Shown: positions 1,051-58,246 of the stretch, piece after piece
Position numbering within the stretch: position 1 is the first letter of the stretch
Layout of the letters: each line of letters begins with the position of its first letter
Virus record (IMG/VR): IMGVR_UViG_3300045988_139374
Coordinates: 32,001-96,000 of that record
Source of the DNA: a virus
Reading direction: 5' to 3' (one strand)
DNA: 64,000 nucleotides
The notes under the pieces: generated by a model
Told to the model about the DNA's origin: nothing
Database searches by the model: none
Seen by the model: the letters and a program-made list of their open reading frames with translations, nothing else
Program-made: the position numbers and the translations under genes

Positions 1051-1157
1051 TTATATCTTTAAAACCCTTTATACAAAAAATAACTAAAATATTTTCGATT
1101 TACTATTTGTCACGTCCTTCAAATAGTAAGTCATAAATTATCAAGGAGGATAACCAA

Positions 1158-2912
1158 ATGCCTATCGGTGCTGTTAACTCTAAGACGGGCTTTGTGGGTG
1201 GTAGCTTTATGCGCGATCCCATGAGTGACTACACTCAGAGTTTTATTGATGTTGCAAAGAATATCCTTGAAGAGTCTAATCTGGATATTTTTGAGGATAC
1301 TAAAAAGATTCTTCGTCGTCCCGCAGAGAAGGAAGCTCTGAAGGAATTCTTCTGCGAGAATTTCATGGATGAAGATATTCGTGATCCCTTTGTCAAAGAT
1401 CCTGGTTACATCGAGGATCAGCATGCTATGATGGAGCAGCAGTTCGAGAACGATGCAGATGCCATTCTGGAGCATGCTTCCATGGCTGATTACAACCCCG
1501 TCATCGGTATGACTTTCCCTGTTCATAAGAACATTCTGATGAACATGGTCTTCGATAAGGGTGCAATCCAGAAGGTTGTTGCAGAGGGTCCCAAGTTCAC
1601 CATGACTATGGAGCGTCGTCTGCTGGTTGATACCAAGGGCAACGAGATTGATATGTTCCTGGATCAGAATAAGATGACTGCTGCCATCGATGAGTCTAAT
1701 CCTGTATACGAGATCGAGCTGACCCTGCCTGAGATGGGTGACACTGACGTTCTGAAGCAGTGTGGTGGCACCAAGCAGGATGATCTGTCTATTAAGACTC
1801 ATATTTCTGCTATCCAGATCGAGAAGCTGTACATTGCTGAGGGCGATATTATGCCCGATGCAGATGGTTTCATTCGTTCCAATGGTAAGATCGCTACCGC
1901 TGCTGATGTTGGTGAAGTCAGCAATGTCTGGTTCCCCACTAACATTCGCTTTGCTCCTGGCTACAACCAGTATGAGCGTACCTTTGTTGCTCCAATTGAG
2001 CTGATTGTCCGTAAGGATGCTGCTACGACTGAGAAGATCGCTGATTCTCTGACTGGTACCATGGACAAGAATGTCTTTACTATCTTCTCTGCTGCTGGCA
2101 AGATCAAGAAGGTTATGCTGGCTGCTGAGCTGGATACTGCTAATCACATGCTGGATACCTGCACTGTGAAGTGGGATACCTTCACTAAGCTGATTGAGAT
2201 CCCGAATGCTATTCCTCTGTCTGTTACCATCAGCCCTGAGGAAGTTAAGGATCTTGCTGCTCTGTACCAGGTTAACCAGCTGACCAAGATCATGTCTCTG
2301 CTGAAGACCACTCTGGCTAACTACAAGGATGACAAGATCAAGCAGTTCCTTGATGACTCCTACGAACGCCTTGACCCGAGAAGCAAGTCGTACATGGAGT
2401 TTGATTACGCTCCTCCCACGGGTTATGCTCTGGATCCGCTGACCTGGCGTCATTCGATGTTCTTCGATGCATTCGATACCGAGGTTACTCGTATGCTGCA
2501 GGTTCTGAATGATCCTAATATGGTCATTACTGTCTTCGGTGATCCTGATCTGGTTCGTAAGATTACTCCTGTTGAGTATTCCTACACTACTCCCAATACT
2601 ATTGGTGCAGTTGATCTGGATTACAAGCGTACCGTTGTTACCTCTGATAAGCGCATCTATCAGTTCATTGGTAGTGATAAGCTCCGCTGGTCCGATACAC
2701 TTGTTGTAATTTTGTGTCCGCATAACAGCAACCGCATGACTTACAGAATCTTTGATTATCAGATGTATGTCTCCAACGAGATTCGTAACGCTGCTAATCC
2801 GACTCTGCCTGCAGTCACTGCGTTTGAGCGCTTCCTAGTAGACGAGTATCAGCCCGTACAGGGTCACGTCGTCATTAAGAATAGAAGCGGATTCAAGCCG
2901 GCTCAACCGTAA
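1158..2912 (+). CDS. Very highly expressed 584-aa protein, candidate major capsid protein
   Basis: Strong RBS (aaggagg). Conspicuously GC3-rich codon usage (ctg, atc, acc, ggt) unlike neighbouring genes. Follows an acidic scaffold-like gene. No catalytic motifs seen. Confidence 0.45.
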   Translation: MPIGAVNSKTGFVGGSFMRDPMSDYTQSFIDVAKNILEESNLDIFEDTKKILRRPAEKEALKEFFCENFMDEDIRDPFVKDPGYIEDQHAMMEQQFENDADAILEHASMADYNPVIGMTFPVHKNILMNMVFDKGAIQKVVAEGPKFTMTMERRLLVDTKGNEIDMFLDQNKMTAAIDESNPVYEIELTLPEMGDTDVLKQCGGTKQDDLSIKTHISAIQIEKLYIAEGDIMPDADGFIRSNGKIATAADVGEVSNVWFPTNIRFAPGYNQYERTFVAPIELIVRKDAATTEKIADSLTGTMDKNVFTIFSAAGKIKKVMLAAELDTANHMLDTCTVKWDTFTKLIEIPNAIPLSVTISPEEVKDLAALYQVNQLTKIMSLLKTTLANYKDDKIKQFLDDSYERLDPRSKSYMEFDYAPPTGYALDPLTWRHSMFFDAFDTEVTRMLQVLNDPNMVITVFGDPDLVRKITPVEYSYTTPNTIGAVDLDYKRTVVTSDKRIYQFIGSDKLRWSDTLVVILCPHNSNRMTYRIFDYQMYVSNEIRNAANPTLPAVTAFERFLVDEYQPVQGHVVIKNRSGFKPAQP

Positions 2913-2998: not shown

Positions 2999-4207
2999 TT
3001 ATTCTTTAATAGGTTTTCCATTATCATCTACAAAATAAATTGCATTTATAGGAATTTTTACATTTCCTTTGGAATCCATAATAGGAGTATTTAATGCATC
3101 TTCAATACTCATACCTTTATTAAGTCTATGGCAAGTTGTGTCTTGTGTAAATCCTCTAGCTCTATCCCAATCAGCACAGGTCATGGTAGTTCCATCATAT
3201 GTAATATATCTAATTCCTTGCGTTGCTGGTGTTGTTAATGCTCTATCAATATTCCATCCTTTTTTAATAATTCTATCATATAATAGATCATTACTGATAC
3301 CGGTAATAGATGACCATTCTTGAAGTGTATGAATTTCACCATAAGAGTTAGCTATTCTAATAAATTGATCATTAATTGCTGTATATAATGTTTGATATGC
3401 AGTCCATTGTTTATTTACATATCTATCATAGATAGTGGCATAAGGAATTCCTGTAATAGTTGACCATTCGGAAATCGTATGAGTTTCTCCATTATATTCA
3501 ATATAAATAGTATTTCTTTTATTATTTGCTTGCATTTTAGAATCTGCCCATCTACAATTATTAGGCTCATAATTACCATTTACATTAATTCTATCAATAG
3601 ACAATTCATCTGTATATCCATTAGCCATTGCCCAATTATAGAAATTAATAAATCCATTCTCACCTCTCCATGCATTGCATACTTTAATTCCTCTTCCGCC
3701 ATAATCCATATAATGATCATTATTTTTATTATAGCATCTATCGAGCATGTTTTTATATGTATTATAGATTCTAGTTCCATGCATTCCATGCTTTGTAGCT
3801 GCTTCTACAATAGCGCATCCACAAGATTTAGTATGGCCATTACGAAGACTATGCCCTCTTACGATACACTCATTACCACAAAGGCATTTACATTTCCAGC
3901 ATACATGCTTTTCTCCATTCTTATCAATATAATCATCAGCTCTTTCTATTACCGTAAGTTTACCAAAAGTTTGTCCGGTTAAATCTTTTAATTTATTTGC
4001 AGATTGACACCCACAATGCCAAGCATGACCATTTCTTAATAAATTACCAGGAACGCTTCTCAATCCACCACATTGGCATCGACAAATCCAGCGAGCGACG
4101 TGTTTTCCAGTCTTAGGTTGAATATAATCATTTTCATCTCTCCTTAATACTGTTAACATACCATATTGCTTCCCGGTTAAATCAGTTGTAGTGTAATTAG
4201 TTCGCAT
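2999..4207 (-). CDS. Homing-endonuclease-like protein (Cys-cluster + YGGRGI/DRIN..NCRW family), free-standing
   Basis: Two N-terminal modules of the form G.xFG.LTV..W.C.C.CG...L..G.T.SCGC. Core is MLDRCYN..YGGRGIKVC..W..F.NF..W, followed by SIDRINVNGNYEPNNCRWA. Three C-terminal GE(T/I)HT(I/L).EW..ITGI repeats. RBS aaggagg. Confidence 0.6.
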   Translation of the reverse strand: MRTNYTTTDLTGKQYGMLTVLRRDENDYIQPKTGKHVARWICRCQCGGLRSVPGNLLRNGHAWHCGCQSANKLKDLTGQTFGKLTVIERADDYIDKNGEKHVCWKCKCLCGNECIVRGHSLRNGHTKSCGCAIVEAATKHGMHGTRIYNTYKNMLDRCYNKNNDHYMDYGGRGIKVCNAWRGENGFINFYNWAMANGYTDELSIDRINVNGNYEPNNCRWADSKMQANNKRNTIYIEYNGETHTISEWSTITGIPYATIYDRYVNKQWTAYQTLYTAINDQFIRIANSYGEIHTLQEWSSITGISNDLLYDRIIKKGWNIDRALTTPATQGIRYITYDGTTMTCADWDRARGFTQDTTCHRLNKGMSIEDALNTPIMDSKGNVKIPINAIYFVDDNGKPIKE

Positions 4208-4332
4208 AATATTGCCTCCTTAAATTATAAAAGTATTATTATGTATACATTATAATAAAATATTAATGCGGATCCATGAGTATCTTACCGGTTCAATGCA
4301 ACGTAGTAGAACAGGCTGATATTCATGATCAA

Positions 4333-4345
4333 TTAATATAATAAA
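4333..4345 (+). promoter_or_regulatory. Variant of the early promoter-like motif
   Basis: tcaattaatataataaat resembles tcaattagatataataaat at 58290. Lies 20 nt upstream of the RBS of the 4366 gene. Confidence 0.3.
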
Positions 4346-4365
4346 TTATTTGGAGGATTATAACT

Positions 4366-5289
4366 ATGGCACTTACTAAAATTAAAATTGGAGATCGATT
4401 TGGAAGGCTAACTGTAATAGGTTATGCTGGACATGAAAGAAGTAAAAATGGATCTAGCAAGTTATTAATTAAATGCAAATGTGATTGTGGTAATGTTATT
4501 ATTACTAGATCAAATAATTTAACTAGAGGAGATACTAAATCTTGTGGATGCTATAGTAAAGAAGTAGCTAGAGAAATCCATTTAGGAAAAGCTTATAACT
4601 ATAAGCATGGAGGTACGATGTACAATTCTAGATTGTATAAAGTATATATAACCATGCATCAAAGATGTGAGAATCCTAATTGCGATCATTATGATAGATA
4701 TGGCGGTAGAGGAATTTATGTATGTAAAGAATGGTCTGGAGAAAATGGATTTTCTAATTTTAGAGAATGGGCTATGAATAATGGATATAATCCTGATGCT
4801 CCAAAAGGTGAATGCACAATCAATAGAATTGATAATGATGGGCCTTATTCTCCTGATAATTGTAAATGGGCTAATATGAAAACTCAAATGAATAATTATA
4901 TTACATGTAATGGAGAAACTCATACACTTCAAGAATGGGCCGATAAAAATAATATAAATTTTAGTACTATTGAAAATAGACTTCATAGCGGATGGCCTAT
5001 TGAAAAAGCATTATTCACACCAGCTGAAAAGAATATTACATATATTGATTATAATGGAAATAATTATTCTGTTGCTGAATGGTGTTATATCTTTGGCATT
5101 GCTCAAACTACTATATCTACAAGAATAAAAAAATATGGAATGGATGATCCACATAAGATTTTGCTATATAATAATGGATATAAAAACCAAACTCCTGTGA
5201 ATGCAATTTATTTTGTAGATGAGAATGAACGACCTATTAATCAGCAGGATTATGCTAATGGAGTTAGAGTTGGAAGGAAAGCTTACTAA
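4366..5289 (+). CDS. Homing-endonuclease-like protein, same paralog family, free-standing
   Basis: One Cys-cluster module ([19 protein letters not shown]). Core [46 protein letters not shown]. Two C-terminal HTH-like repeats. Confidence 0.6.
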
Positions 5290-5310
5290 TACTATTGGAG
5301 GCAAAATATT

Positions 5311-6816
5311 ATGGAAGATAATTCGCAAATTCTTAAATTAATGAGAATGATGAATAACACACCGAAATATTGGATTTTATCGCCAGATGCTGTTATGACT
5401 GGATCGTATGATGATGGGCGTCCTTTACTTCCACCAGGAGAAGCATTTGAAAATAAAATAGTTTTAACCAATCCTAAAGATAATCCATCTATTCTCTGTG
5501 AATATATATGTGAGAAATGTTCCGATGGATGCTATAAATGGGAATATATTGGTACATGGGATAATAATCTAGATCTTTTAGATTTGGATTTGGACAAAGA
5601 ATATGATAGCCATGGCCATCATAATGAAAATCTTGAATACAATAATCCAATATTAGAGTTCAGACAAAAAGTTAAAAATGATGATATGGATCGTGATGAT
5701 ATTGTAAGACTATTCATGAAAATGCAATCTCAATTGGAAAAATATATTCTCCATATTGATACTGAATATGAATCTTTGGCTGTTAAAATTCAAAGTTTTC
5801 CAAAGATTGATGAGTATGATAAATATCTTTATCGAGATGATGATGGAAATATTAGTATCATAGATTATAATGATAATTTGGGATATCATCAATTCACTTT
5901 ATTCAATCTAAAAGATTGTGATAAATTTAGAGAAAATACTATTCTTTCTGCAGATCTTGATATAAATGAATTTAGATCTAAAATTAGATCTTCTTCTGGA
6001 TATTCAAATAAGGTTGATATTTTCCAATATTTTGATTGGTATCACCATTTGAAATTTGCTGGAAAGAGTAATAATAAAGATGATAAACCTTTGATTAAGG
6101 CATCTAGAGATACTACTGATTATCTTTATATTACAGAATATAAAGATACTAAAGAGCATCTTTACCAAGTTTTTTGCACATTTAAAAATATCCATAATGA
6201 TTATTATTGGGAATTCATCTGCAATGTAAATGATTGCAAACCGTATATAGAGCATGAAATAGAGAAGCATATAGAGATAGAGAAAAAGAGAGAAATGATT
6301 CTTGAATTTCAGAGGGAGCAGCAAGAAGAAAAATCAACCTATCAAGATAGTAAATACGATTGGACGCGATATTCTGCTGGATTAAATAATAAAGAGGCTG
6401 AAATTAATAATCGTATTTTCAATAATGCATCTACTGAAAATATTGGTCATGATAAAGAAGATATCGATATGATTCTTACAAATTCTTCTACATCTACTGT
6501 AAATTGTTCTAGCTCTATTTCTAAGAGGTTGAAATATATAGAAATGAAACAAAAGAAGCATGGCACAATCACGTCTCAGAATATTACTATTACTGGAAAT
6601 TATAATTATACAGTTGGAATTTCTATGAATCAGGCAGGAGGAGATGATTGTGAGCAATCCCAAACTGTAGTAATCAAAAATCCAAAATCTGAAAAGAAGA
6701 AAGAAAAGAAGGAATCTGTATTTGGGGTCTTGCATCATGCTCTAATCAACTTAGCGAAAATTATAGAGCGCTATACTCGATATTTGCTTGATCACTGCAT
6801 GGATAATTTCTTCTAA
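5311..6816 (+). CDS. Hypothetical protein (501 aa)
   Basis: Long ORF with RBS ttggagg. No motif recognised. Confidence 0.6.
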   Translation: MEDNSQILKLMRMMNNTPKYWILSPDAVMTGSYDDGRPLLPPGEAFENKIVLTNPKDNPSILCEYICEKCSDGCYKWEYIGTWDNNLDLLDLDLDKEYDSHGHHNENLEYNNPILEFRQKVKNDDMDRDDIVRLFMKMQSQLEKYILHIDTEYESLAVKIQSFPKIDEYDKYLYRDDDGNISIIDYNDNLGYHQFTLFNLKDCDKFRENTILSADLDINEFRSKIRSSSGYSNKVDIFQYFDWYHHLKFAGKSNNKDDKPLIKASRDTTDYLYITEYKDTKEHLYQVFCTFKNIHNDYYWEFICNVNDCKPYIEHEIEKHIEIEKKREMILEFQREQQEEKSTYQDSKYDWTRYSAGLNNKEAEINNRIFNNASTENIGHDKEDIDMILTNSSTSTVNCSSSISKRLKYIEMKQKKHGTITSQNITITGNYNYTVGISMNQAGGDDCEQSQTVVIKNPKSEKKKEKKESVFGVLHHALINLAKIIERYTRYLLDHCMDNFF

Positions 6817-6905: not shown

Positions 6906-7415
6906 ATGGTTTACGTAGCAAATGATGGAAGATACATTATCAAGGATAGAAGTATCACAAATTCAACGGATCTTCCTGGGAATATTGAGATTACTTATCC
7001 TATGGATAATTTTCCATGTGACGATTTAATTGCTCCTGCAGTTGCTGAGCTTCTTAAGAGAGGATATCAGACTAAGTATTGCTGCCAAGGGCATATAGCT
7101 CCTGATTTAGTAAATGATATTTCTACAGTGCACGGAACTGATATTCCTATTGTAGAAAATTTTGAAGTATTCTCTGCTTCTAATATGTGTGTTCCTTATA
7201 TCATGTTTGAGAAATCTGTTATTAGGCATGATCTTTATAATCTTCCTTCTAGTTGGGAAATTAGAAAAGGTAAGATGCATGGATGCATTACTATTGAAGC
7301 AAAGATCGATAATAATATTGGAGATCATTATGAATTCTTTACTTTTCATAGAAGAGCTATTGAATGTGCAGAAGATCTTTATAAATGGGCTTGTGGATTG
7401 GAGTGGAGAAAATGA
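6906..7415 (+). CDS. Hypothetical protein
   Basis: ATG at 6906 is preceded by aaaaggag. The upstream in-frame ATG at 6849 lies inside the 5' hairpin. Confidence 0.55.
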   Translation: MVYVANDGRYIIKDRSITNSTDLPGNIEITYPMDNFPCDDLIAPAVAELLKRGYQTKYCCQGHIAPDLVNDISTVHGTDIPIVENFEVFSASNMCVPYIMFEKSVIRHDLYNLPSSWEIRKGKMHGCITIEAKIDNNIGDHYEFFTFHRRAIECAEDLYKWACGLEWRK

Positions 7416-8029
7416 GACCTTTAGTGTATAATGATGATGGACGTATGATTACTCAAGAAGAATATGAGCAGATTCATAATAACGATGCATCAGTTCCTGT
7501 AGATGATCCTGTAATGGGATTATTTGTTCCATTCTTTGAAAAACTTGGAGTTAGATGTAAAGTTGTTGGAGATCTTAGCTTTGGCCAATATGTGGAAAAA
7601 CAAGAAATCTATAATCATGATGGATGGATTTATATTCCTTATCTGATTCTTGATACTAACTATGGAGAAAATCCTGAGTTTGTTTCCAAAATGGAAAATA
7701 TGCTTAAAAGTTCTACCAATACTGATATCTTTGATCAGATGGAACAGTATCTGAAAGGAAAGTATACCACTTCTAATAAAGTTTGGGAGTTAGAAGATAC
7801 TGCAGATGAAAATTCTAAATTCCATGTAGTAATCGATGCATATGGAAATACACATGGCCAGCATGATAGATATGTTCTTAAACTTCATATGACAGACGAT
7901 GTTAGACTCGGATTAATTAATTTTAGTAATAATACAGATCTTTATTATAAACTTGCTGCTATTATTACTGACATCAGTATTCTTATGAAGATGCTAGTAG
8001 AAACATTCGAAGACAAGAAAAAAGAATAA
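7412..8029 (+). CDS. Hypothetical protein, weak paralog of the preceding gene
   Basis: ATGA start/stop overlap with the upstream gene. Shares a DD.....(L)G......PY(I/L) pattern with the 6906 product. Confidence 0.55.
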   Translation: MRPLVYNDDGRMITQEEYEQIHNNDASVPVDDPVMGLFVPFFEKLGVRCKVVGDLSFGQYVEKQEIYNHDGWIYIPYLILDTNYGENPEFVSKMENMLKSSTNTDIFDQMEQYLKGKYTTSNKVWELEDTADENSKFHVVIDAYGNTHGQHDRYVLKLHMTDDVRLGLINFSNNTDLYYKLAAIITDISILMKMLVETFEDKKKE

Positions 8030-13722: not shown

Positions 13723-14475
13723 ATGGGCAGAATGTATAATATCCAAAGTGGAGATATCTTTGGAAGACTAGTTGTTATTGGAAAAGCAGCAGATTTCATA
13801 GATCCGAAAAGTAAAAAGCATATGACACAGTATCTATGCCAATGTAGTTGCCCTGAAAGAAATACTGTAATTGTAAAAGCTAAGAATCTTGTAGGAAACA
13901 TTACTAGATCATGTGGATGCTTAAGACGAGAAACTACTGCTGCTAAATTTAATAATAAACCTATAGAAAATTATCCTCCTTGTGGATATTATGTAAATGA
14001 AGTAATCTATGCATATCATTATATGATTTATGAAGCTACAAGAGCTCCAGAAACTAAGCACTTTAATATTCCTGTATATGGAGAATGGATTAATTCTAAA
14101 ACTGGAATAAAAGCATTTTATGATGATATGTCTCCTACATATGAATTAGGATGTAAAATTGGTAGAATTAATGACTCTCTTGGGTATAGACCTGATAACT
14201 GTATTTGGGTAGAAAAGAGTATAAAACAATTCGATAGAATAAATGATATGGTAATTAGATATGAAGAATCTTCATATATGGTATCTGAATGGAATAGAGC
14301 AATGGGATATGAAAAGAATACCATAAGAGATAGAATTATAGATGGATATTCCTATGAAGATGCTATATCTGGAACTTATGATGATAGAGATTTTGATTAT
14401 GTAAATGCTATATTTTTTATGGACAAATATGGAAGACCAATAAATAATGAATATGCTAAATATATGATATTCTAA
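13723..14475 (+). CDS. Homing-endonuclease-like paralog (degenerate core)
   Basis: N-terminal FGRLVVIGK..YLCQCSCPE..SCGC module and IGRINDSLGYRPDNCIWV. The YGGRGI segment is degenerate. Confidence 0.55.
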   Translation: MGRMYNIQSGDIFGRLVVIGKAADFIDPKSKKHMTQYLCQCSCPERNTVIVKAKNLVGNITRSCGCLRRETTAAKFNNKPIENYPPCGYYVNEVIYAYHYMIYEATRAPETKHFNIPVYGEWINSKTGIKAFYDDMSPTYELGCKIGRINDSLGYRPDNCIWVEKSIKQFDRINDMVIRYEESSYMVSEWNRAMGYEKNTIRDRIIDGYSYEDAISGTYDDRDFDYVNAIFFMDKYGRPINNEYAKYMIF

Positions 14476-14501: not shown

Positions 14502-14553
14502 TATGATTAGAGATTGATATTATTTCTAATTTATTATTAAAGGAGTGAAATAT

Positions 14554-15054
14554 ATGAGTAGACTAATTGATTTAACTGGACAAAGATTTGGTAGACTCTA
14601 TGTATTGGGTAGAGATGAAAATCATTTTGGCCATCCTTATAGAAGAGAGGCATTCTGGTGGTGTCAATGCAGTTGCCCAGAACATACAACAATTTCTGTT
14701 TGCGGTACTGCTCTTAGATCTGGTCATACTACATCTTGCGGATGCTACCAAAGAGAAAATAATCATAGACTAGTTACTCATAAAAGAGTATATAAGAAAG
14801 GACTTAGTAAAGAATATCCTGAGCTTCTTAAATATTGGGAAAGGTTGATGAAATTTAAGAAAGATTTACTCTGTGATAGATGGAAAGATGAAGAAAATGG
14901 TGTATATAATTTCATAGATGATATGAAAAATACTCATTTTAAGAGAGCAAGAATTCACAGAAAAGATCCACTTCTACCTTATAGTAAGGAAAATTGTTTC
15001 TGGGATTCAAGAAATTATATTGTAGATCTTCCATTAAAAAATAAGGAGTTGTAA
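14554..15054 (+). CDS. Short paralog of the homing-endonuclease-like family
   Basis: FGRLYVLGR..WWCQCSCPE..SCGC module, then LCDRW..NF.DDM..RKDPLLPYSKENCFW. ATG at 14554 follows aaaggag. Confidence 0.5.
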   Translation: MSRLIDLTGQRFGRLYVLGRDENHFGHPYRREAFWWCQCSCPEHTTISVCGTALRSGHTTSCGCYQRENNHRLVTHKRVYKKGLSKEYPELLKYWERLMKFKKDLLCDRWKDEENGVYNFIDDMKNTHFKRARIHRKDPLLPYSKENCFWDSRNYIVDLPLKNKEL

Positions 15055-15057
15055 AAT

Positions 15058-15507
15058 GTGTCTATTGGTTCTGTAATTCAACCTGGAGATAAGTATAATC
15101 ATCTAACAGTACTTGAGAGAGTAGAAGATAGGAAATTTCCTAATGGAGAAAAGAAACCAACTTTTCTCTGTGAGTGTGACTGTCCTGAAAGAAATAGAAT
15201 AGTAGTCATTGGAGAATATCTTAGAAATGGACATACCAAATCTTGTGGTTGTCTATTGAAAGAAGTTCAAAGTCATGTTGGAGATATGACTAGAACTCAT
15301 GGATTATCTAAAACTAAAGAGGCAATAGTTTATTATCATCTTACAAGTAGGCATCCAGATGAACTATGTGAAAGATGGGCAAAAGATAATCCTAATGGAA
15401 TGGTAAATTTCTATAATGATATGCACATCTCTTATAAACCCGGAAGTAGGCTCGCTAAGAAATATCCTACTGAAAATTATGGCCCCAAGAACTGTTATTG
15501 GCTATAA
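15058..15507 (+). CDS. Short paralog of the homing-endonuclease-like family (GTG start)
   Basis: LTVLERV..FLCECDCPE..SCGC module, then LCERW..NFYNDM..YPTENYGPKNCYW. GTG lies 9 nt after aaggag. Confidence 0.5.
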   Translation: MSIGSVIQPGDKYNHLTVLERVEDRKFPNGEKKPTFLCECDCPERNRIVVIGEYLRNGHTKSCGCLLKEVQSHVGDMTRTHGLSKTKEAIVYYHLTSRHPDELCERWAKDNPNGMVNFYNDMHISYKPGSRLAKKYPTENYGPKNCYWL

Positions 15508-31765: not shown

Positions 31766-32791
31766 TTAGAAATTATTAAATTCTCCGTTATTAATAACAA
31801 CGACTTTCTTAATAGAATTCAAGTTAGTATTTTTAGCAAGATGAGTACGAGGATCAATAGTATAATCCTCAATAACTAGATTAGAAGTAATAGGCATATT
31901 GGGAATTACTTCTCCAGTTCTAGTATTCATCCACTGGAAATACTTAGCTCCAGTTGCTTGGTCGTAAACGATGACTTCTTCAATATCAGGATTATTATCA
32001 TTAAGCATTAGATTTTGCTCAGGAGTTAGATGACTCATAAAGTTATTCATTCCTGCATCAACTCCAGCTTGAATCTGAGGAGGATAATCCTGTCTAATAA
32101 CACCAGTACCACCAGTTAGATTAATAGTATTAGGTAACGTATAAGAAGGAGCACCAACAGGAGCAGAAATAAATGCAGAATATGCATCCATAATTGCCTT
32201 ATTATCATCAGTTTGATCAAGTGCTTTCATATCCTTATAACGACGATACTCGTTATCAATGATAGCCTTAGTAGTAGCATTACGTTCTTTAATAGCTGCA
32301 AGTTTTGTGGAAAGCGCAGAGTTCATAGCAGCACGAGTTTCATTAATATAGTGATACTTGCCCTTCATAGATCTCTGAGATTTCATATAAGCAATATCTT
32401 GAGCACAGTCCATAATAATACCATCTGCTTGAGCAATAATAGTATTGGTCATAGCATTTGTATCGCTATATTCATCAGCATATACTGTATTTTCTACTGT
32501 CTCTCTAGGAGATACTTTATTATCTTCTTGAGCAGAATCATCTGTATTCTTTTTCTTTCTAGCTTTCTTAGGTTTTGTAGAGATAATATCAGCAGTCATG
32601 GTATTTCCATCTACAGAAATAGGTACAGAAACATTGGTTCCAATTAGACTAGAAAAATTGGGCATTGTCTGATTGCTAGTTTGTGTAACAGTTCCTAGAC
32701 TAATGGCTTGGACATCATTGGGCTTTCCATCGGTAGTATAGCTTTGATGCTCATCTACCATGGTAGGTACTTTAGGGAATTCGATTGCCAT
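31766..32791 (-). CDS. Hypothetical protein (341 aa)
   Basis: ORF with RBS aaaggag. Lys-rich patch KPKKARKKK. Confidence 0.55.
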   Translation of the reverse strand: MAIEFPKVPTMVDEHQSYTTDGKPNDVQAISLGTVTQTSNQTMPNFSSLIGTNVSVPISVDGNTMTADIISTKPKKARKKKNTDDSAQEDNKVSPRETVENTVYADEYSDTNAMTNTIIAQADGIIMDCAQDIAYMKSQRSMKGKYHYINETRAAMNSALSTKLAAIKERNATTKAIIDNEYRRYKDMKALDQTDDNKAIMDAYSAFISAPVGAPSYTLPNTINLTGGTGVIRQDYPPQIQAGVDAGMNNFMSHLTPEQNLMLNDNNPDIEEVIVYDQATGAKYFQWMNTRTGEVIPNMPITSNLVIEDYTIDPRTHLAKNTNLNSIKKVVVINNGEFNNF

Positions 32792-54782: not shown

Positions 54783-55007
54783 ATGGTTATTCAAAATCCA
54801 TCAACTCCAATTACTGTTTATTATCAAGATAGTACCACTAATCAGAGTTTTATGAATATGTATTATTTTCTTAAAGCTCGTGGTATTAAGAATAATAAAT
54901 TCTTTTTGTTGTTGTATGATGGTGGATTAATGGGCGTAGACCCAAGGGACCCAAATCTACCTAAACCAATGAAGATGCGCGTTCTTCGAGAATGCATGGT
55001 TAACTAT
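54783..55007 (+). CDS. terL: Terminase large subunit, exon 1 (3' boundary uncertain by a few nt)
   Basis: A 75-76 codon ORF ending ...RECMVNY(W), followed by intron-like sequence. Continues logically into ...FIRELCRIP (compare T4 gp17 VYFAETYCAI). Confidence 0.7.
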
Positions 55008-56230
55008 TGGTAAACTAAGAAATGCCCCTCATTATGGTGACATAGTGTTGAATGCTATTGAACTGCTGGGAAAGGCTAAAGCTCTCTTACCTACAATCAG
55101 GTGTCGAAAGACAGAAACAAGTAGAGAGATGGGTCATGGTGAAATAAAAGCTTATTATATTTCTATCCCTATTATAATAAGTCCTAAAACCTAAAATCAA
55201 TGTCTAATCAGCAACCAACAAACTTATATTAATCTATTTCAATTTTACTAGGAGGGTTAATATGAGTACCAACGGCAAACCTTTAAACGATATTACTGGA
55301 AAGATTTATCACAGTAACAATTGTGGAGATTTTGAAATCTTAGGTGAGATCGAGTATGTAGGAAAAGAGATTCATACAAGTCCATCAAATACAAGATATG
55401 CTTTGAGATTCCTGAATACAGGATATGTAACTGATGCATCACTAGATGCAATTAGACATGGAAGAGTATATGATAGATATACTCCAAATGTTGCTGGGGT
55501 TGGATATATTGGAACAAATATGATTATCAGTGATCCATATCCTTGCCAGTTTTATAAAGCTTGGAACGATATGATGAATAGATGCTATAATAAAGCTGAT
55601 AAAGATTATCCTTTATATGGAGGCATCGGAATCACAGTAGATCCTAGATGGCATAACTTCTCTACATTTATGCTTGATGTTCCATTTCTTCCGCTTTACG
55701 AAAAGAAGTTAATGTATCCTTCTATTTATCAACTTGATAAAGATTTTCTACAAATTCATGTTCCTAAAAATAAAAGAATTTATTCTAGAAATACATGTAT
55801 GTGGTTATCAAAACTTGATAATGTTTTAATGATGTCAAAAGATCGTGATATTAAAGATGGTAATCCATATGTAGGTGTAGTCTATTCTCACAATTGCTGG
55901 AAAACTGTAATAAATGGAGCAGTCTATGGAAAATTTAATGATCCTAAAGCTGCTGCAAATCTTTTCAATTATTTATATCCAAAGCTTAAAGGACCTTTTA
56001 ATGATATCACTATTCTAAATAATGTAGAATATATTCCATTAGAAGAATTGTCGAAATATATTGTTGGTTCAACGACTATCCAAACTGGAGTAGAGCCGCC
56101 TAAAACGGTTCGAAGTAATAGCACACCTCCAATTAATTTTACAGCTACAATTGGAGATGAAGATATAGTCTGAGCTTATGTAACACATAAGATTAACAAG
56201 CGTTAATATATAAAAAATAACGCAGGTACG
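55008..56230 (+). mobile_element. Group I intron in terL carrying a homing-endonuclease-like ORF
   Basis: The 5' part (55065-55213) is clearly homologous to the polB intron (34526-34677). gttcaacgacta at 56067-56078 (R) and agatatagtc at 56161-56170 (S). The ORF sits in a loop closed by aaccaacaa (55213-55221) and ttgttggtt (56061-69). Exact splice sites not resolved. Confidence 0.8.
55262..56173 (+). CDS. Intron-encoded homing-endonuclease-like protein of the YGGRGI family
   Basis: WNDMMNRCYNKADKDYPLYGGIGITVDPRW.NFSTF and YQLDKD...YSRNTCMW match the free-standing paralogs. RBS aggagg. The last codons overlap the ribozyme R and S elements. Confidence 0.7.
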   Translation: MSTNGKPLNDITGKIYHSNNCGDFEILGEIEYVGKEIHTSPSNTRYALRFLNTGYVTDASLDAIRHGRVYDRYTPNVAGVGYIGTNMIISDPYPCQFYKAWNDMMNRCYNKADKDYPLYGGIGITVDPRWHNFSTFMLDVPFLPLYEKKLMYPSIYQLDKDFLQIHVPKNKRIYSRNTCMWLSKLDNVLMMSKDRDIKDGNPYVGVVYSHNCWKTVINGAVYGKFNDPKAAANLFNYLYPKLKGPFNDITILNNVEYIPLEELSKYIVGSTTIQTGVEPPKTVRSNSTPPINFTATIGDEDIV

Positions 56231-58246
56231 ACTAATTTCATAAGGGAACTATGTAGGATCCCAACCGAAGGCGGTGCAGTTGGAGCTGGTAAAAGATTCG
56301 AACTAAATCGTGGTAACTTAGCCATGGCATATATGTTCGTTTATAATATTAACCAATTTGTAGAATTTCCTCGACAGCATGGTAAAACTGTTAGCGCCCT
56401 TTGTTGGTATCTTTGGGTTTTTAATTTCGGTGCAACAAATACTAGAATAATGTTTGCTAATAAGAAGCATGAAGACTCTAAAGCAAACTTGAGAACCATG
56501 AAGAATCTAAGAGCTGCCTTACCAGAATATTTGCGTATGGAAGCTCAGTTAGATAGAGATGGTAAACAAATACGTGCTCCAAATACAGCAGAAACATTAC
56601 AGAATCCTATAAATAGAAACTTGATTACCACTCTACCTGGTGCTAGAACTCCGGCTCTAGCAGAAGGTGCAGGACGTGGTGCTACAGTTGCAATTCAATA
56701 TTATGATGAGTTTGCTTTCTTGCCTTATAATGATATTGTATATACTGCTGCTATGCCTGCATTCTCTAAAGCATCTGAGAACGCTAAGTCTAATGGATCT
56801 CCTTATGGAGTATTGATTACTACTACTCCTGGAGACTTGACTACTAGAGAAGGTCAATTTGCTAATCATGTTAGATTGAATGGTACTGAATGGAATGAAA
56901 GTTTTTATGACCTAAGTTATGATGATCTTAAGAAAGTCATTGATGCTAATACAGATTCTAACTTCATGCATATTAGATATACTTATCAAATGCTTGGTAA
57001 TGGTACTGAGTATTTTGATCGCATGGTTAAGGATCTGCAGAAAGACTGGGTTAAGATTCGTCGTGAGGTTCTACTAGAATGGGCTAAGACTGCTGATAAC
57101 AGTCCTTTTAATAGAGAAGATTTGGATATTATCGGAGCTCAAGTAAAGCAGGAACCTAGAAGTATTTTGAGATTTGGTAAAGCTGGACAATTCGTAATGA
57201 AGATTTGGGATACTATACCTATGAATAGTATGTATCCATTCATTATCGGCGTTGACGTTTCTTCTGGTATACATAAAGACTCGTCTGCTATTACAGTTAT
57301 TGATTCTCAAACTACTAAAGTCATTGCTACATTTAAATGTAACTTTATTACGATGCCAGAATTGGCTGATATGATATATCAGTTTACAACTACTTATGCA
57401 AAGAATGCTATTATAAATATCGAAAACAATGGAGGTTTTGGAAGTTCTGTTCTACAGATGCTTATTAAAACTTCTATTAAAAAGAATCTCTATTATGAAA
57501 TTAAAGATCGTATAGATGAAGAGCAATTTGATGGAATGACAGTCAAGCGTAGACCTAAGAAATGTAAAGTCTATGGCTCTACTTCTGGAAAGAATAAACG
57601 TAATCAGCTTATTGAATTGCTGCATCAAAGAGTTCAGCATCATAGAGATAAATTTAATAGTAAAGATATTTATGATGAACTTTGCACAATGGTTGTTAAG
57701 CCTAATGGTAAAGTAGAGCATGCAGACGATGCACATGATGACTTGGTATTCTCTTATCTTTGGGCTTTGTATGTTTTCTATTATGGAGAAGATCTTGCTA
57801 CAAGATTTCATATTATGAAGACAGAGATCTATACTGATGATCATTATGATGAAACTTCTTATAGTCTAGAAGAAGAATATGGTGAAGAAGGAGAAAAACT
57901 AGATCCTAGTGTATTTGCTGATGATGCAGATGCTACTACTCATATGATAAATGATCAGCTCGATTATTTGAGCAAATCTAAGCGTATGAGTATGGAAGAT
58001 TTCCATCTTGCTCAATTAAATGAAGATGAGAAATCTCTGGAAAGAATCAGAAAAACTACAATAGGAAGAAAAGCTATCTCTGATGCTTATCATATTCCTG
58101 AAGATTATTTGGAGAAGCAAGAAAATAATGGATATACAGATATTAGTGCAGATCTGAATAAAATTTGGTATGGAGATAATTCTAAGAATCCTACTAACCC
58201 AACTTTAGCAGGAAACTTAAGTGATCTATTTAATAGAATAAATTAA
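56231..58246 (+). CDS. terL: Terminase large subunit, exon 2
   Basis: The frame is open from 56207. Walker A-like FPRQHGKT, Walker B YYDEFAF, nuclease motifs IGVDVSSG and AHDDLVFSYLWALYV (compare T4 gp17 YHDDLVMSLVIFGW). Confidence 0.85.
   Translation, partial: TNFIRELCRIPTEGGAVGAGKRFELNRGNLAMAYMFVYNINQFVEFPRQHGKTVSALCWYLWVFNFGATNTRIMFANKKHEDSKANLRTMKNLRAALPEYLRMEAQLDRDGKQIRAPNTAETLQNPINRNLITTLPGARTPALAEGAGRGATVAIQYYDEFAFLPYNDIVYTAAMPAFSKASENAKSNGSPYGVLITTTPGDLTTREGQFANHVRLNGTEWNESFYDLSYDDLKKVIDANTDSNFMHIRYTYQMLGNGTEYFDRMVKDLQKDWVKIRREVLLEWAKTADNSPFNREDLDIIGAQVKQEPRSILRFGKAGQFVMKIWDTIPMNSMYPFIIGVDVSSGIHKDSSAITVIDSQTTKVIATFKCNFITMPELADMIYQFTTTYAKNAIINIENNGGFGSSVLQMLIKTSIKKNLYYEIKDRIDEEQFDGMTVKRRPKKCKVYGSTSGKNKRNQLIELLHQRVQHHRDKFNSKDIYDELCTMVVKPNGKVEHADDAHDDLVFSYLWALYVFYYGEDLATRFHIMKTEIYTDDHYDETSYSLEEEYGEEGEKLDPSVFADDADATTHMINDQLDYLSKSKRMSMEDFHLAQLNEDEKSLERIRKTTIGRKAISDAYHIPEDYLEKQENNGYTDISADLNKIWYGDNSKNPTNPTLAGNLSDLFNRIN

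Follow-up and report, generated by a model that had tools for sequence, protein, structure and literature searches.

Six atypical HNH-like candidate homing endonuclease genes, without the defining histidine, in a genome fragment of a gut jumbo phage

Homing endonuclease genes shape the boundaries of recombination between phages and are a source of rare-cutting enzymes. Among the closest described systems to the genes considered here are gp59, gp115 and gp209 of ICP1, which were described as 'related to, but distinct from' HNH-3, missed by Pfam, assigned through HHsearch and named IPA-HNH; in the available text of that article HHsearch is the only basis given for the HNH assignment, no cleavage assay is reported and histidine is mentioned nowhere (Barth, Dunham & Seed 2023, PMC10448857). 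The 2017 classification of His-Me fingers, the wider fold of the HNH enzymes, lists 38 groups, three of them without the histidine: in PacI a loop tyrosine stands in for the missing residue, Smad MH1 and ENPP are inactive, and groups lacking both histidine and tyrosine are regarded as inactive (PMC5714182). Here we describe six open reading frames (ORF1 to ORF6) in a 64,000-nucleotide stretch of viral DNA (positions 32,001 to 96,000 of IMG/VR record IMGVR_UViG_3300045988_139374; hereafter the window). Our analysis supports reading them as atypical HNH-like phage homing endonuclease genes of a known yet poorly characterised kind, with ORF6 belonging to the published IPA-HNH group. The presence of such genes in a phage is ordinary; what appears to be new, relative to the literature searched, is the loss of the catalytic histidine across a whole family, together with a conserved and jointly lost triad of Asp, Tyr and Gln.

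The six ORFs align as paralogs, with 23-47% identity to ORF1. A six-frame scan of the window with hidden Markov models (HMMs) built for three modules, an N-terminal Cys-cluster domain, a core of ~95 aa and a helix-turn-helix (HTH) unit, matched exactly six loci and found no seventh family copy, the core profile reaching E 1e-38 on ORF1 and ORF2 and 5e-25 on ORF6. The sharing of motifs among the six is far beyond chance. Four kinds of module are combined, a Cys-cluster beta domain and the core being joined to either HTH tails or AP2-like tails, and the family core has the consensus TRLY..W..M..RC.NPN...Y.RYGGRGI.VC.EW...F..F..WA..NGY...LTIDRIDN..GYSPDNCRW.T..EQ.NN. The genes neighbour those for the major head protein, a UvsX-like recombinase, the RNA polymerase (RNAP) beta subunit and the terminase large subunit (terL). 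An earlier note on this DNA had picked out the same six frames as paralogs with common motifs, beside the head protein, RNAP beta and terL genes, and both the alignment and the module scan bear this out.

The two longest copies lie beside the capsid gene. ORF1 (2999-4207, minus strand, 402 aa) carries two Cys-cluster domains (3995-4183 and 3803-3988), a core (3491-3784) in which the site IDR...Y...Q is intact, and three HTH units (3371-3526, 3224-3340 and 3080-3211), while ORF2 (4366-5289, plus strand, 307 aa; AlphaFold2 (AF2) model with a predicted local distance difference test score (pLDDT) of 85) has one Cys-cluster domain (4381-4566), a core reading INR...Y...Q (4618-4899) and two HTH units (4888-5031 and 5041-5148). 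The next three, all on the plus strand, are shorter. ORF3 (13723-14475, 250 aa) has a Cys cluster and a single HTH unit but keeps only the C-terminal half of the core; it is without YGGRGI, and its site reads IGR...Y, with the Asp and the Gln lost. ORF4 (14554-15054, 166 aa, its frame open from an alternative GTG start at 14545) has a Cys cluster and a partial core, IHRKD...Y..NCFW, from which the helix Gln is gone, and no HTH unit, and ORF5 (15058-15507, 149 aa), which runs into the start of the RNAP beta gene, combines a Cys cluster with a core remnant ending ...NCYWL that is recognisable by eye only, not by HMM. ORF6 (55262-56173, plus strand, 303 aa) is encoded within an intron. Its N-domain is homologous to the Cys-cluster domain (E 2.8e-6) yet lacks the cysteines; its full core (55547-55855) reads YGGIGI...LDKD...YS..TC.W....DN, with YGGIGI, VD for VC and LDKD for IDRID as variants; and an AP2-like motif, Y.GV...W....G.F...AA (~55859-55981), replaces the HTH units carried by ORF1-3. 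Pfam AP2 matches just one of 38 relatives (E 0.0017), and some homologs are annotated as AP2/ERF. Three dispersed cysteines in the core (ORF2 Cys101, Cys120 and Cys166, conserved at 95%, 75% and 93%, the middle one replaced by Asp in the ORF6 clade) lack an evident fourth ligand and may form a structural metal site.

We consider it quite probable that the core is a derived His-Me (beta-beta-alpha-metal) finger rather than a fold with no kinship to HNH. The HNH_3 motif of I-HmuI, VVDHKDGNKDNNLSTNLRWVTQKINVEN (checked against the 1U3E sequence), is echoed in the last third of the core, and hhalign aligned the core to I-HmuI at E 8.6e-4, to an alignment of 57 I-HmuI relatives at E 0.018 and, from a 195-sequence core alignment, to the HNH region at E 0.0069, the preceding helix now being paired as well. 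All three set-ups returned one register, in which NGY..TI(D/N)RIDN..Y.P.NC(R/K)W....Q.NN falls on EGY..VVDHKDGN..NN...NLRWV...N.EN. The AF2 model of the core (pLDDT 88, and above 90 in the beta-beta-alpha part) makes ORF2 residues 151-154 and 166-169 strands and begins a helix at 171, a beta-beta-alpha unit at the aligned position whose order and spacing of elements equal those of I-HmuI residues 71-75, 88-91 and 92-100 in the hhalign register. A bridge to named genes comes from ORF6, which matches ICP1 gp59 by BLASTP at E 1e-9 (28% identity over 129 aa, including the core); ORF1-5 connect to the IPA-HNH genes solely through the shared core. Several results pull the other way. The hhalign probabilities were 3-24% across the three set-ups, which leaves the register consistent and not conclusive; PDB sequence searches, whether run with ORF1 or with the profile of the family, returned nothing relevant; none of 114 members has a Pfam HNH match; and Foldseek of the core against PDB gave nothing significant (best E 0.8), the non-significant top entries being Cas8-HNH, I-PpoI and colicin E9, with the full-length model finding weak small beta-barrel matches in the N-domain only. 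The earlier note had seen no obvious canonical HNH, LAGLIDADG, GIY-YIG or His-Cys box signature. This is correct at the level of the curated Pfam and NCBIfam models, but the core is most likely a derived HNH finger with Arg or Lys in place of His; the Pfam and AlphaFold/Foldseek checks of the core that it proposed gave no curated or significant match, but did give a beta-beta-alpha unit at the HNH register.

The defining feature of an HNH enzyme is what the family lacks. Across 528 domain copies, the end of strand 1, where I-HmuI has His75, is Arg in 83% and His in none; the remaining ~15%, with Ile, Leu or Val, are attributed to misaligned IPA-type copies. This residue is Arg in ORF1-4, and the ORF6/IPA clade has an invariant L-D-K-D, with Lys at the position of the catalytic histidine. 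Other positions of the putative site are well kept in the same sample: the residue before the Arg is Asp, Asn or Glu in 81%, Tyr occupies the inter-strand loop in 92% and Phe in the other 8%, and the metal position at the start of the helix (Trp+6) is Gln in 66% and Asn in 19%, with Asp159 and Asn187 invariant in the ORF6 clade. His166 of ORF6 was tried as an alternative catalytic histidine and rejected, being poorly conserved (Asn in 33, His in 18 and Asp in 11 of 81) and with the invariant LDKD lying further upstream.

These residues also disappear together. Change of the Tyr to Phe co-occurs with loss of the Asp (odds ratio (OR) 27, p 2e-18) and with loss of the Gln/Asn (OR 53, p 2e-24), and Asp and Gln/Asn are jointly lost (OR 48), whereas coupling of the Tyr-to-Phe change to fold residues is much weaker (OR 2.6 for Cys78 and 3.0 for Asp68); the statistics ignore phylogenetic non-independence and draw on a sample in which high-scoring, multi-domain proteins are over-represented. 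Many family proteins, including the metagenomic P0321-P0349, contain two to four tandem modules of core plus HTH, and often one module alone retains the full Asp/Tyr/Gln site; among single-domain proteins the full triad is kept in 121 of 127. Joint loss of Asp, Tyr and Gln/Asn suggests one functional site that some copies have abandoned. In the window the full site is found in ORF1, ORF2 and ORF6, and not in ORF3-5.

The behaviour of these genes among close relatives is best seen in terL. The phage is only distantly related to the AR9/PBS1/Goe21 jumbo-phage group (terL 32-36%), and near-identity searches of GenBank phages found no close DNA match to the window; its near relatives are IMG/VR contigs and a 268-kb contig from a Hadza human gut metagenome (L066). 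On the plus strand, comparison with intron-less alleles divides terL into exon 1 (54783-55011), a group I intron (55012-56234) and exon 2 (56235-58246), with an uncertainty in the intron boundary of ~1 nt, or 4-5 nt if the omega-G rule is imposed. A conserved intron core, GAUGAAGAUAUAGUC, lies at ~56157-56171, GACUA/UAGUC elements are present, and the 3' end of ORF6 overlaps the P7/P8 core of the intron. Rfam RF00028, whose gathering score is 50, gives 25.5 bits for the window; an ORF-less copy in relative L057 reaches 27.5 bits (E 4e-5) and aligns full-length to the group I model, below that threshold. The insertion is polymorphic: L056 carries it with an ORF6 99% identical to that of the window; L057 and L060 have an ORF-less version of ~380 nt at the same site; in L055, whose terL is 98% identical, exon 1 abuts exon 2 and the intron-less site reads GAATGCATGGTTAACTATTGGTATTTTGCTCGCGAGGTAGTGCGT; and more distant relatives are intron-less there. 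The first ~25-30 nt of exon 2 show about a dozen differences between intron-plus and intron-less alleles and near-identity beyond, a diverged 3' exon flank such as co-conversion or target immunity would leave.

All intron-less alleles read N(Y/F)WY(F/Y)(A/I)RE across the site, and NYWYFIRE is restored only if exon 1 ends ...TATTGGT (55011) and exon 2 starts ATTTCATAAGG (56235), so that splicing probably joins ...TATTGGT to ATTTCATAAGG. This junction puts a U at -1, would allow a GGU/GCC P1, comes with a clear P2 hairpin and leaves the intron ending in ...GACUA, with a terminal A and not the usual G (55008-55015 and 56228-56240). A junction that obeys the omega-G rule (TAT/ACTAAT) yields NYTNF and is out of frame in L057, which has a 1-nt indel in the disputed segment. 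Judged by the intron-less alleles, the probable splice junction lies 4-5 nt from the one proposed earlier. Every relative examined (L056, at 7110-7498; L055; L057-L064) also has a second, ORF-less terL insertion of ~370-390 nt, absent from the window, at a site corresponding to window position ~57432 in exon 2, between ...AACAATGG and GGNTTYGG; it has no Rfam match and is probably another intron.

Beside the capsid gene the family turns over as well. In phages with a 96-97% identical capsid gene, the homologs of ORF1 share just 57-63% identity and those of ORF2 48-56%. ORF2 is missing from L003 and L014, a single copy on the opposite strand is found in L004, L005 and L007, and L006 and L008-13 have no family copy at the locus. 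In L066 the position of ORF1 is taken by a 243-aa gene (5107-5838, minus strand) with two Cys-cluster domains and one HTH unit, from which the core has been deleted, as would be expected of a homing endonuclease gene on its path of decay. The gene downstream of ORF2 (ORF 5311-6816) is 66-68% identical to its counterparts in L001 and L002 over its first 120-160 codons and 92-93% over the rest; the divergence at window 5311-5800 marks an exchange boundary adjoining the endonuclease-like gene. A 530-aa frame antisense to the capsid gene (1131-2723, minus strand) is almost certainly a spurious open frame. Elsewhere in L066 (9018-12169) nrdD, encoding the anaerobic ribonucleotide reductase, is interrupted by a 252-aa ORF that bears a canonical HNH_3 motif, VVDHINGTGGDNRRCNLRICTQGQN, which by eye runs parallel to a 25-residue stretch of the family; it is a further intron or insertion endonuclease of this phage lineage, of the classical type. 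Taken across loci, the family occurs inside an intron or free-standing by conserved genes and varies in presence and absence among close relatives, which is the genomic pattern of homing endonucleases.

Upstream of the RNAP beta gene, too, the family comes and goes. ORF3-5 are present in the four nearest relatives only; L025, L026 and L051 have one full-length family member at their position, and over 20 other relatives have the recombinase gene immediately upstream of the RNAP gene and no family copy in the gap. Against the orthologs in L024 and L027, the ratio of non-synonymous to synonymous substitution rates (dN/dS) is 0.17 for ORF3, 0.25 for ORF4 and 0.15-0.18 for ORF5, beside 0.08-0.11 for the recombinase and RNAP genes on either side; in L024, ORF4 appears to carry a frameshift. 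Values of 0.15-0.25 indicate that the short copies are maintained under purifying selection, and the suggestion that they are decaying is not upheld. With the putative active site gone, sequence-specific DNA binding would be their likeliest role.

The family to which these genes belong is vast and nearly without curation. At E <= 0.001 the core profile finds 128,305 cluster representatives (50% identity), 107,688 of them at <= 1e-10; by tblastn, ORF1-like genes occur in 1,179 phage records and ORF6-like genes in 758, annotated as 'hypothetical', 'HNH endonuclease', 'AP2/ERF' or 'DNA-binding'. In the six ORFs no Pfam or NCBIfam model covers the core, and no Pfam nuclease family was found in 114 relatives (76 + 38) scanned one by one, the matches from these scans being weak ones to HTH_8, HTH_psq, PVL_ORF50, CapR and AP2 only. 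PHROGs gave strong matches to phrog_374, 3377, 2081 and 953, every one labelled 'HNH endonuclease', and the BFVD matches were other family members only, named 'uncharacterized', 'HNH endonuclease', 'AP2/ERF' or 'DNA-binding'. Literature searches with the motif strings returned unrelated papers only, and a paper on the ShiLan 'hidden HNH' was put aside, since its family is not obviously this one. The idea of a poorly characterised, homing-endonuclease-like family is thus supported by the intron polymorphism, the turnover of ORF1 and ORF2 and the sheer size of the uncurated family. The earlier note's description of the core as widespread and mostly unannotated holds for its spread and lack of curation, but not for its labelling, since PHROGs and many GenBank records say 'HNH endonuclease', and the ORF6 type, poorly characterised as it is, already has a name in the IPA-HNH genes treated by Barth et al. 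2023 (PMC10448857).

On balance we lean towards the view that ORF1, ORF2 and ORF6 are active, His-independent nucleases and that ORF3-5 are domesticated binders. The six ORFs would then form one modular family of selfish, mobile phage genes, each joining sequence-reading modules (the Cys-cluster beta domain plus HTH or AP2 units) to a ~95-aa core in which the catalytic histidine at the end of strand 1 would have been replaced by Arg in the main clade and by Lys in the ORF6/IPA-HNH clade. ORF1, ORF2 and ORF6 would act as site-specific nickases or nucleases, the metal being held by the Asp and the Gln/Asn, and the loop Tyr taking over the role of the missing histidine as in PacI, perhaps aided by the Arg or Lys. 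ORF6 would cleave terL alleles that lack the intron, near ...AACTATTGGT^ATTTTGCT..., and thereby drive the homing of its group I intron; ORF1 and ORF2 would cut capsid-flanking alleles in co-infecting relatives and spread through repair; and ORF3-5, which have lost Asp/Gln and YGGRGI and are kept by selection, would be non-cutting DNA binders just upstream of RNAP beta. A bolder proposition, which we put forward tentatively, is that the family is a major unrecognised His-Me branch (more than 100,000 clusters) that cuts without histidine through a triad of Asp, loop Tyr and Gln with Arg or Lys, the Tyr maybe serving as nucleophile, possibly with a covalent Tyr-DNA intermediate.

A good deal weighs against catalysis. 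Two to four modules in tandem are commoner for binding domains than for nucleases. Literature searches found no published assay of any family member and we know of none; PDB searches found no sequence or fold match to PacI, an analogy that is mechanistic only; and in PhiPA3 gp210, a canonical jumbo-phage HNH enzyme, changing the histidine to Arg (H82R) abolishes nicking (PMC11620839), the very residue that most of this family carries by nature. Such points feed the idea that the core is a dead nuclease fold, used for DNA binding only as in Smad MH1, in which case the proteins would be sequence-specific DNA binders, such as regulators or maturase- or immunity-like factors, and their patchiness would stem from ordinary mosaic recombination or from hitch-hiking on the intron and not from homing of their own. 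The family-wide absence of the histidine, its inactivating replacement in gp210, the tandem arrays, the inactivity ascribed to His-Me groups without His and Tyr, the purifying selection still acting on ORF3-5 with their degenerate site, and the annotation of some homologs as merely DNA-binding or AP2 would all sit well with it. Binding alone, however, has no need of Tyr, Asp and Gln/Asn residues so highly conserved and lost together, which fit a catalytic site; the L066 copy kept its binding modules and deleted its core, the usual decay of a homing endonuclease gene; the presence or absence of the intron comes with a diverged 3' exon flank; and family genes stand at the edges of exchanged segments. 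We regard a purely binding role for the whole family as unlikely, with a chance that is nevertheless appreciable.

The nucleases might instead be active without homing, as weapons against co-infecting phages or host DNA or as accessories of packaging or recombination, their adjacency to essential genes being incidental or related to expression. The intron-encoded HNH enzyme gp210 of PhiPA3 does act in competition between phages (PMC11620839), and Barth et al. caution that HNH genes beside terminase can be packaging factors (PMC10448857). With no PADLOC defence-system match beyond a weak HTH match, this idea rests on analogy; competition and homing are moreover compatible, gp210 being a homing enzyme too, and intron polymorphism with turnover at fixed intergenic sites fits homing directly, so that we think it improbable. 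It is more improbable still, to the point of being barely tenable, that the six are an immobile, lineage-specific family produced by local duplication and inherited vertically. ORF3-5 taken by themselves would suit such a history, standing in tandem, syntenic and 97-98% identical in the two closest relatives and evolving just slightly faster than their neighbours, but ORF1 and ORF2 are far more diverged than their flanks and vary in orientation and presence, the terL intron is polymorphic, and the family is found in over 1,000 unrelated phage records and in 128,305 clusters.

Whichever way the chemistry falls, the stakes are not small. The family is among the most abundant of phage gene families, with neither a curated model nor biochemistry to its name, and the label 'HNH endonuclease' hides the absence of the defining histidine. 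If the proteins cut, they form a large His-independent branch of the His-Me finger fold; were Asp/Tyr/Gln chemistry to prove true, they would rank among the most abundant phage homing endonuclease families, with a chemistry otherwise known only from PacI. If they do not cut, thousands of annotations are wrong and the mobile behaviour needs another explanation. The window and its relatives amount to a ready test system, offering a 98%-identical pair of intron-plus and intron-less terL alleles alongside intact, core-deleted and site-degenerate copies.

Set against known systems, ORF6 is closest to the IPA-HNH genes of ICP1 (gp59, gp115/116 and gp209). It shares with gp59 the motifs AGVGY, W..M..RCY, YQLDKD and Y..P..C....N, and its own C-terminus is AP2-like; both have diverged too far for Pfam HNH_3 and sit beside or inside essential genes (terminase, polymerase). 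Unlike them, ORF1-5 fall in a sister clade that is far larger and is marked by a Cys-cluster N-domain, YGGRGI, Arg and not Lys, and HTH and not AP2 tails. I-HmuI and HNH_3 (1U3E) are modular in a similar way, the DNA-binding N-domain being a beta-sheet, the core a small beta-beta-alpha unit and the C-terminus an HTH, with the motif register D-x-x-D...N-(L/C)-(R/K)-W...(N/Q) and an intron location in phages of Gram-positive hosts in common; the differences are that its His75 is Arg or Lys here, that its loop Asn-Asn is Tyr-x-Pro here, that the family has an extra helical N-terminal part of ~65 aa with RC/YGGRGI/VC, and that I-HmuI gave no significant profile or structural match to the family core. 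PacI, in His-Me group 20, provides the precedent for a beta-beta-alpha-metal site without histidine, a Tyr in its inter-strand loop having been proposed to start cleavage (PMC5714182), and most of the group comes from viruses and carries an HTH-like domain as well (Jablonska et al. 2017, PMC5714182); the likeness is claimed for the mechanism alone. For ORF3-5 the model is Smad MH1, a nuclease-derived fold kept for DNA binding after loss of its active site, albeit in a eukaryotic transcription factor and with no homology claimed. PhiPA3 gp210, finally, is a parallel in genomic setting, a group I intron endonuclease of a jumbo phage in an essential RNAP gene (Birkholz et al. 2024, PMC11620839); it has the canonical His82 where this family naturally carries Arg or Lys, and it shows that an intron enzyme can also serve in competition between co-infecting phages (PMC11620839).

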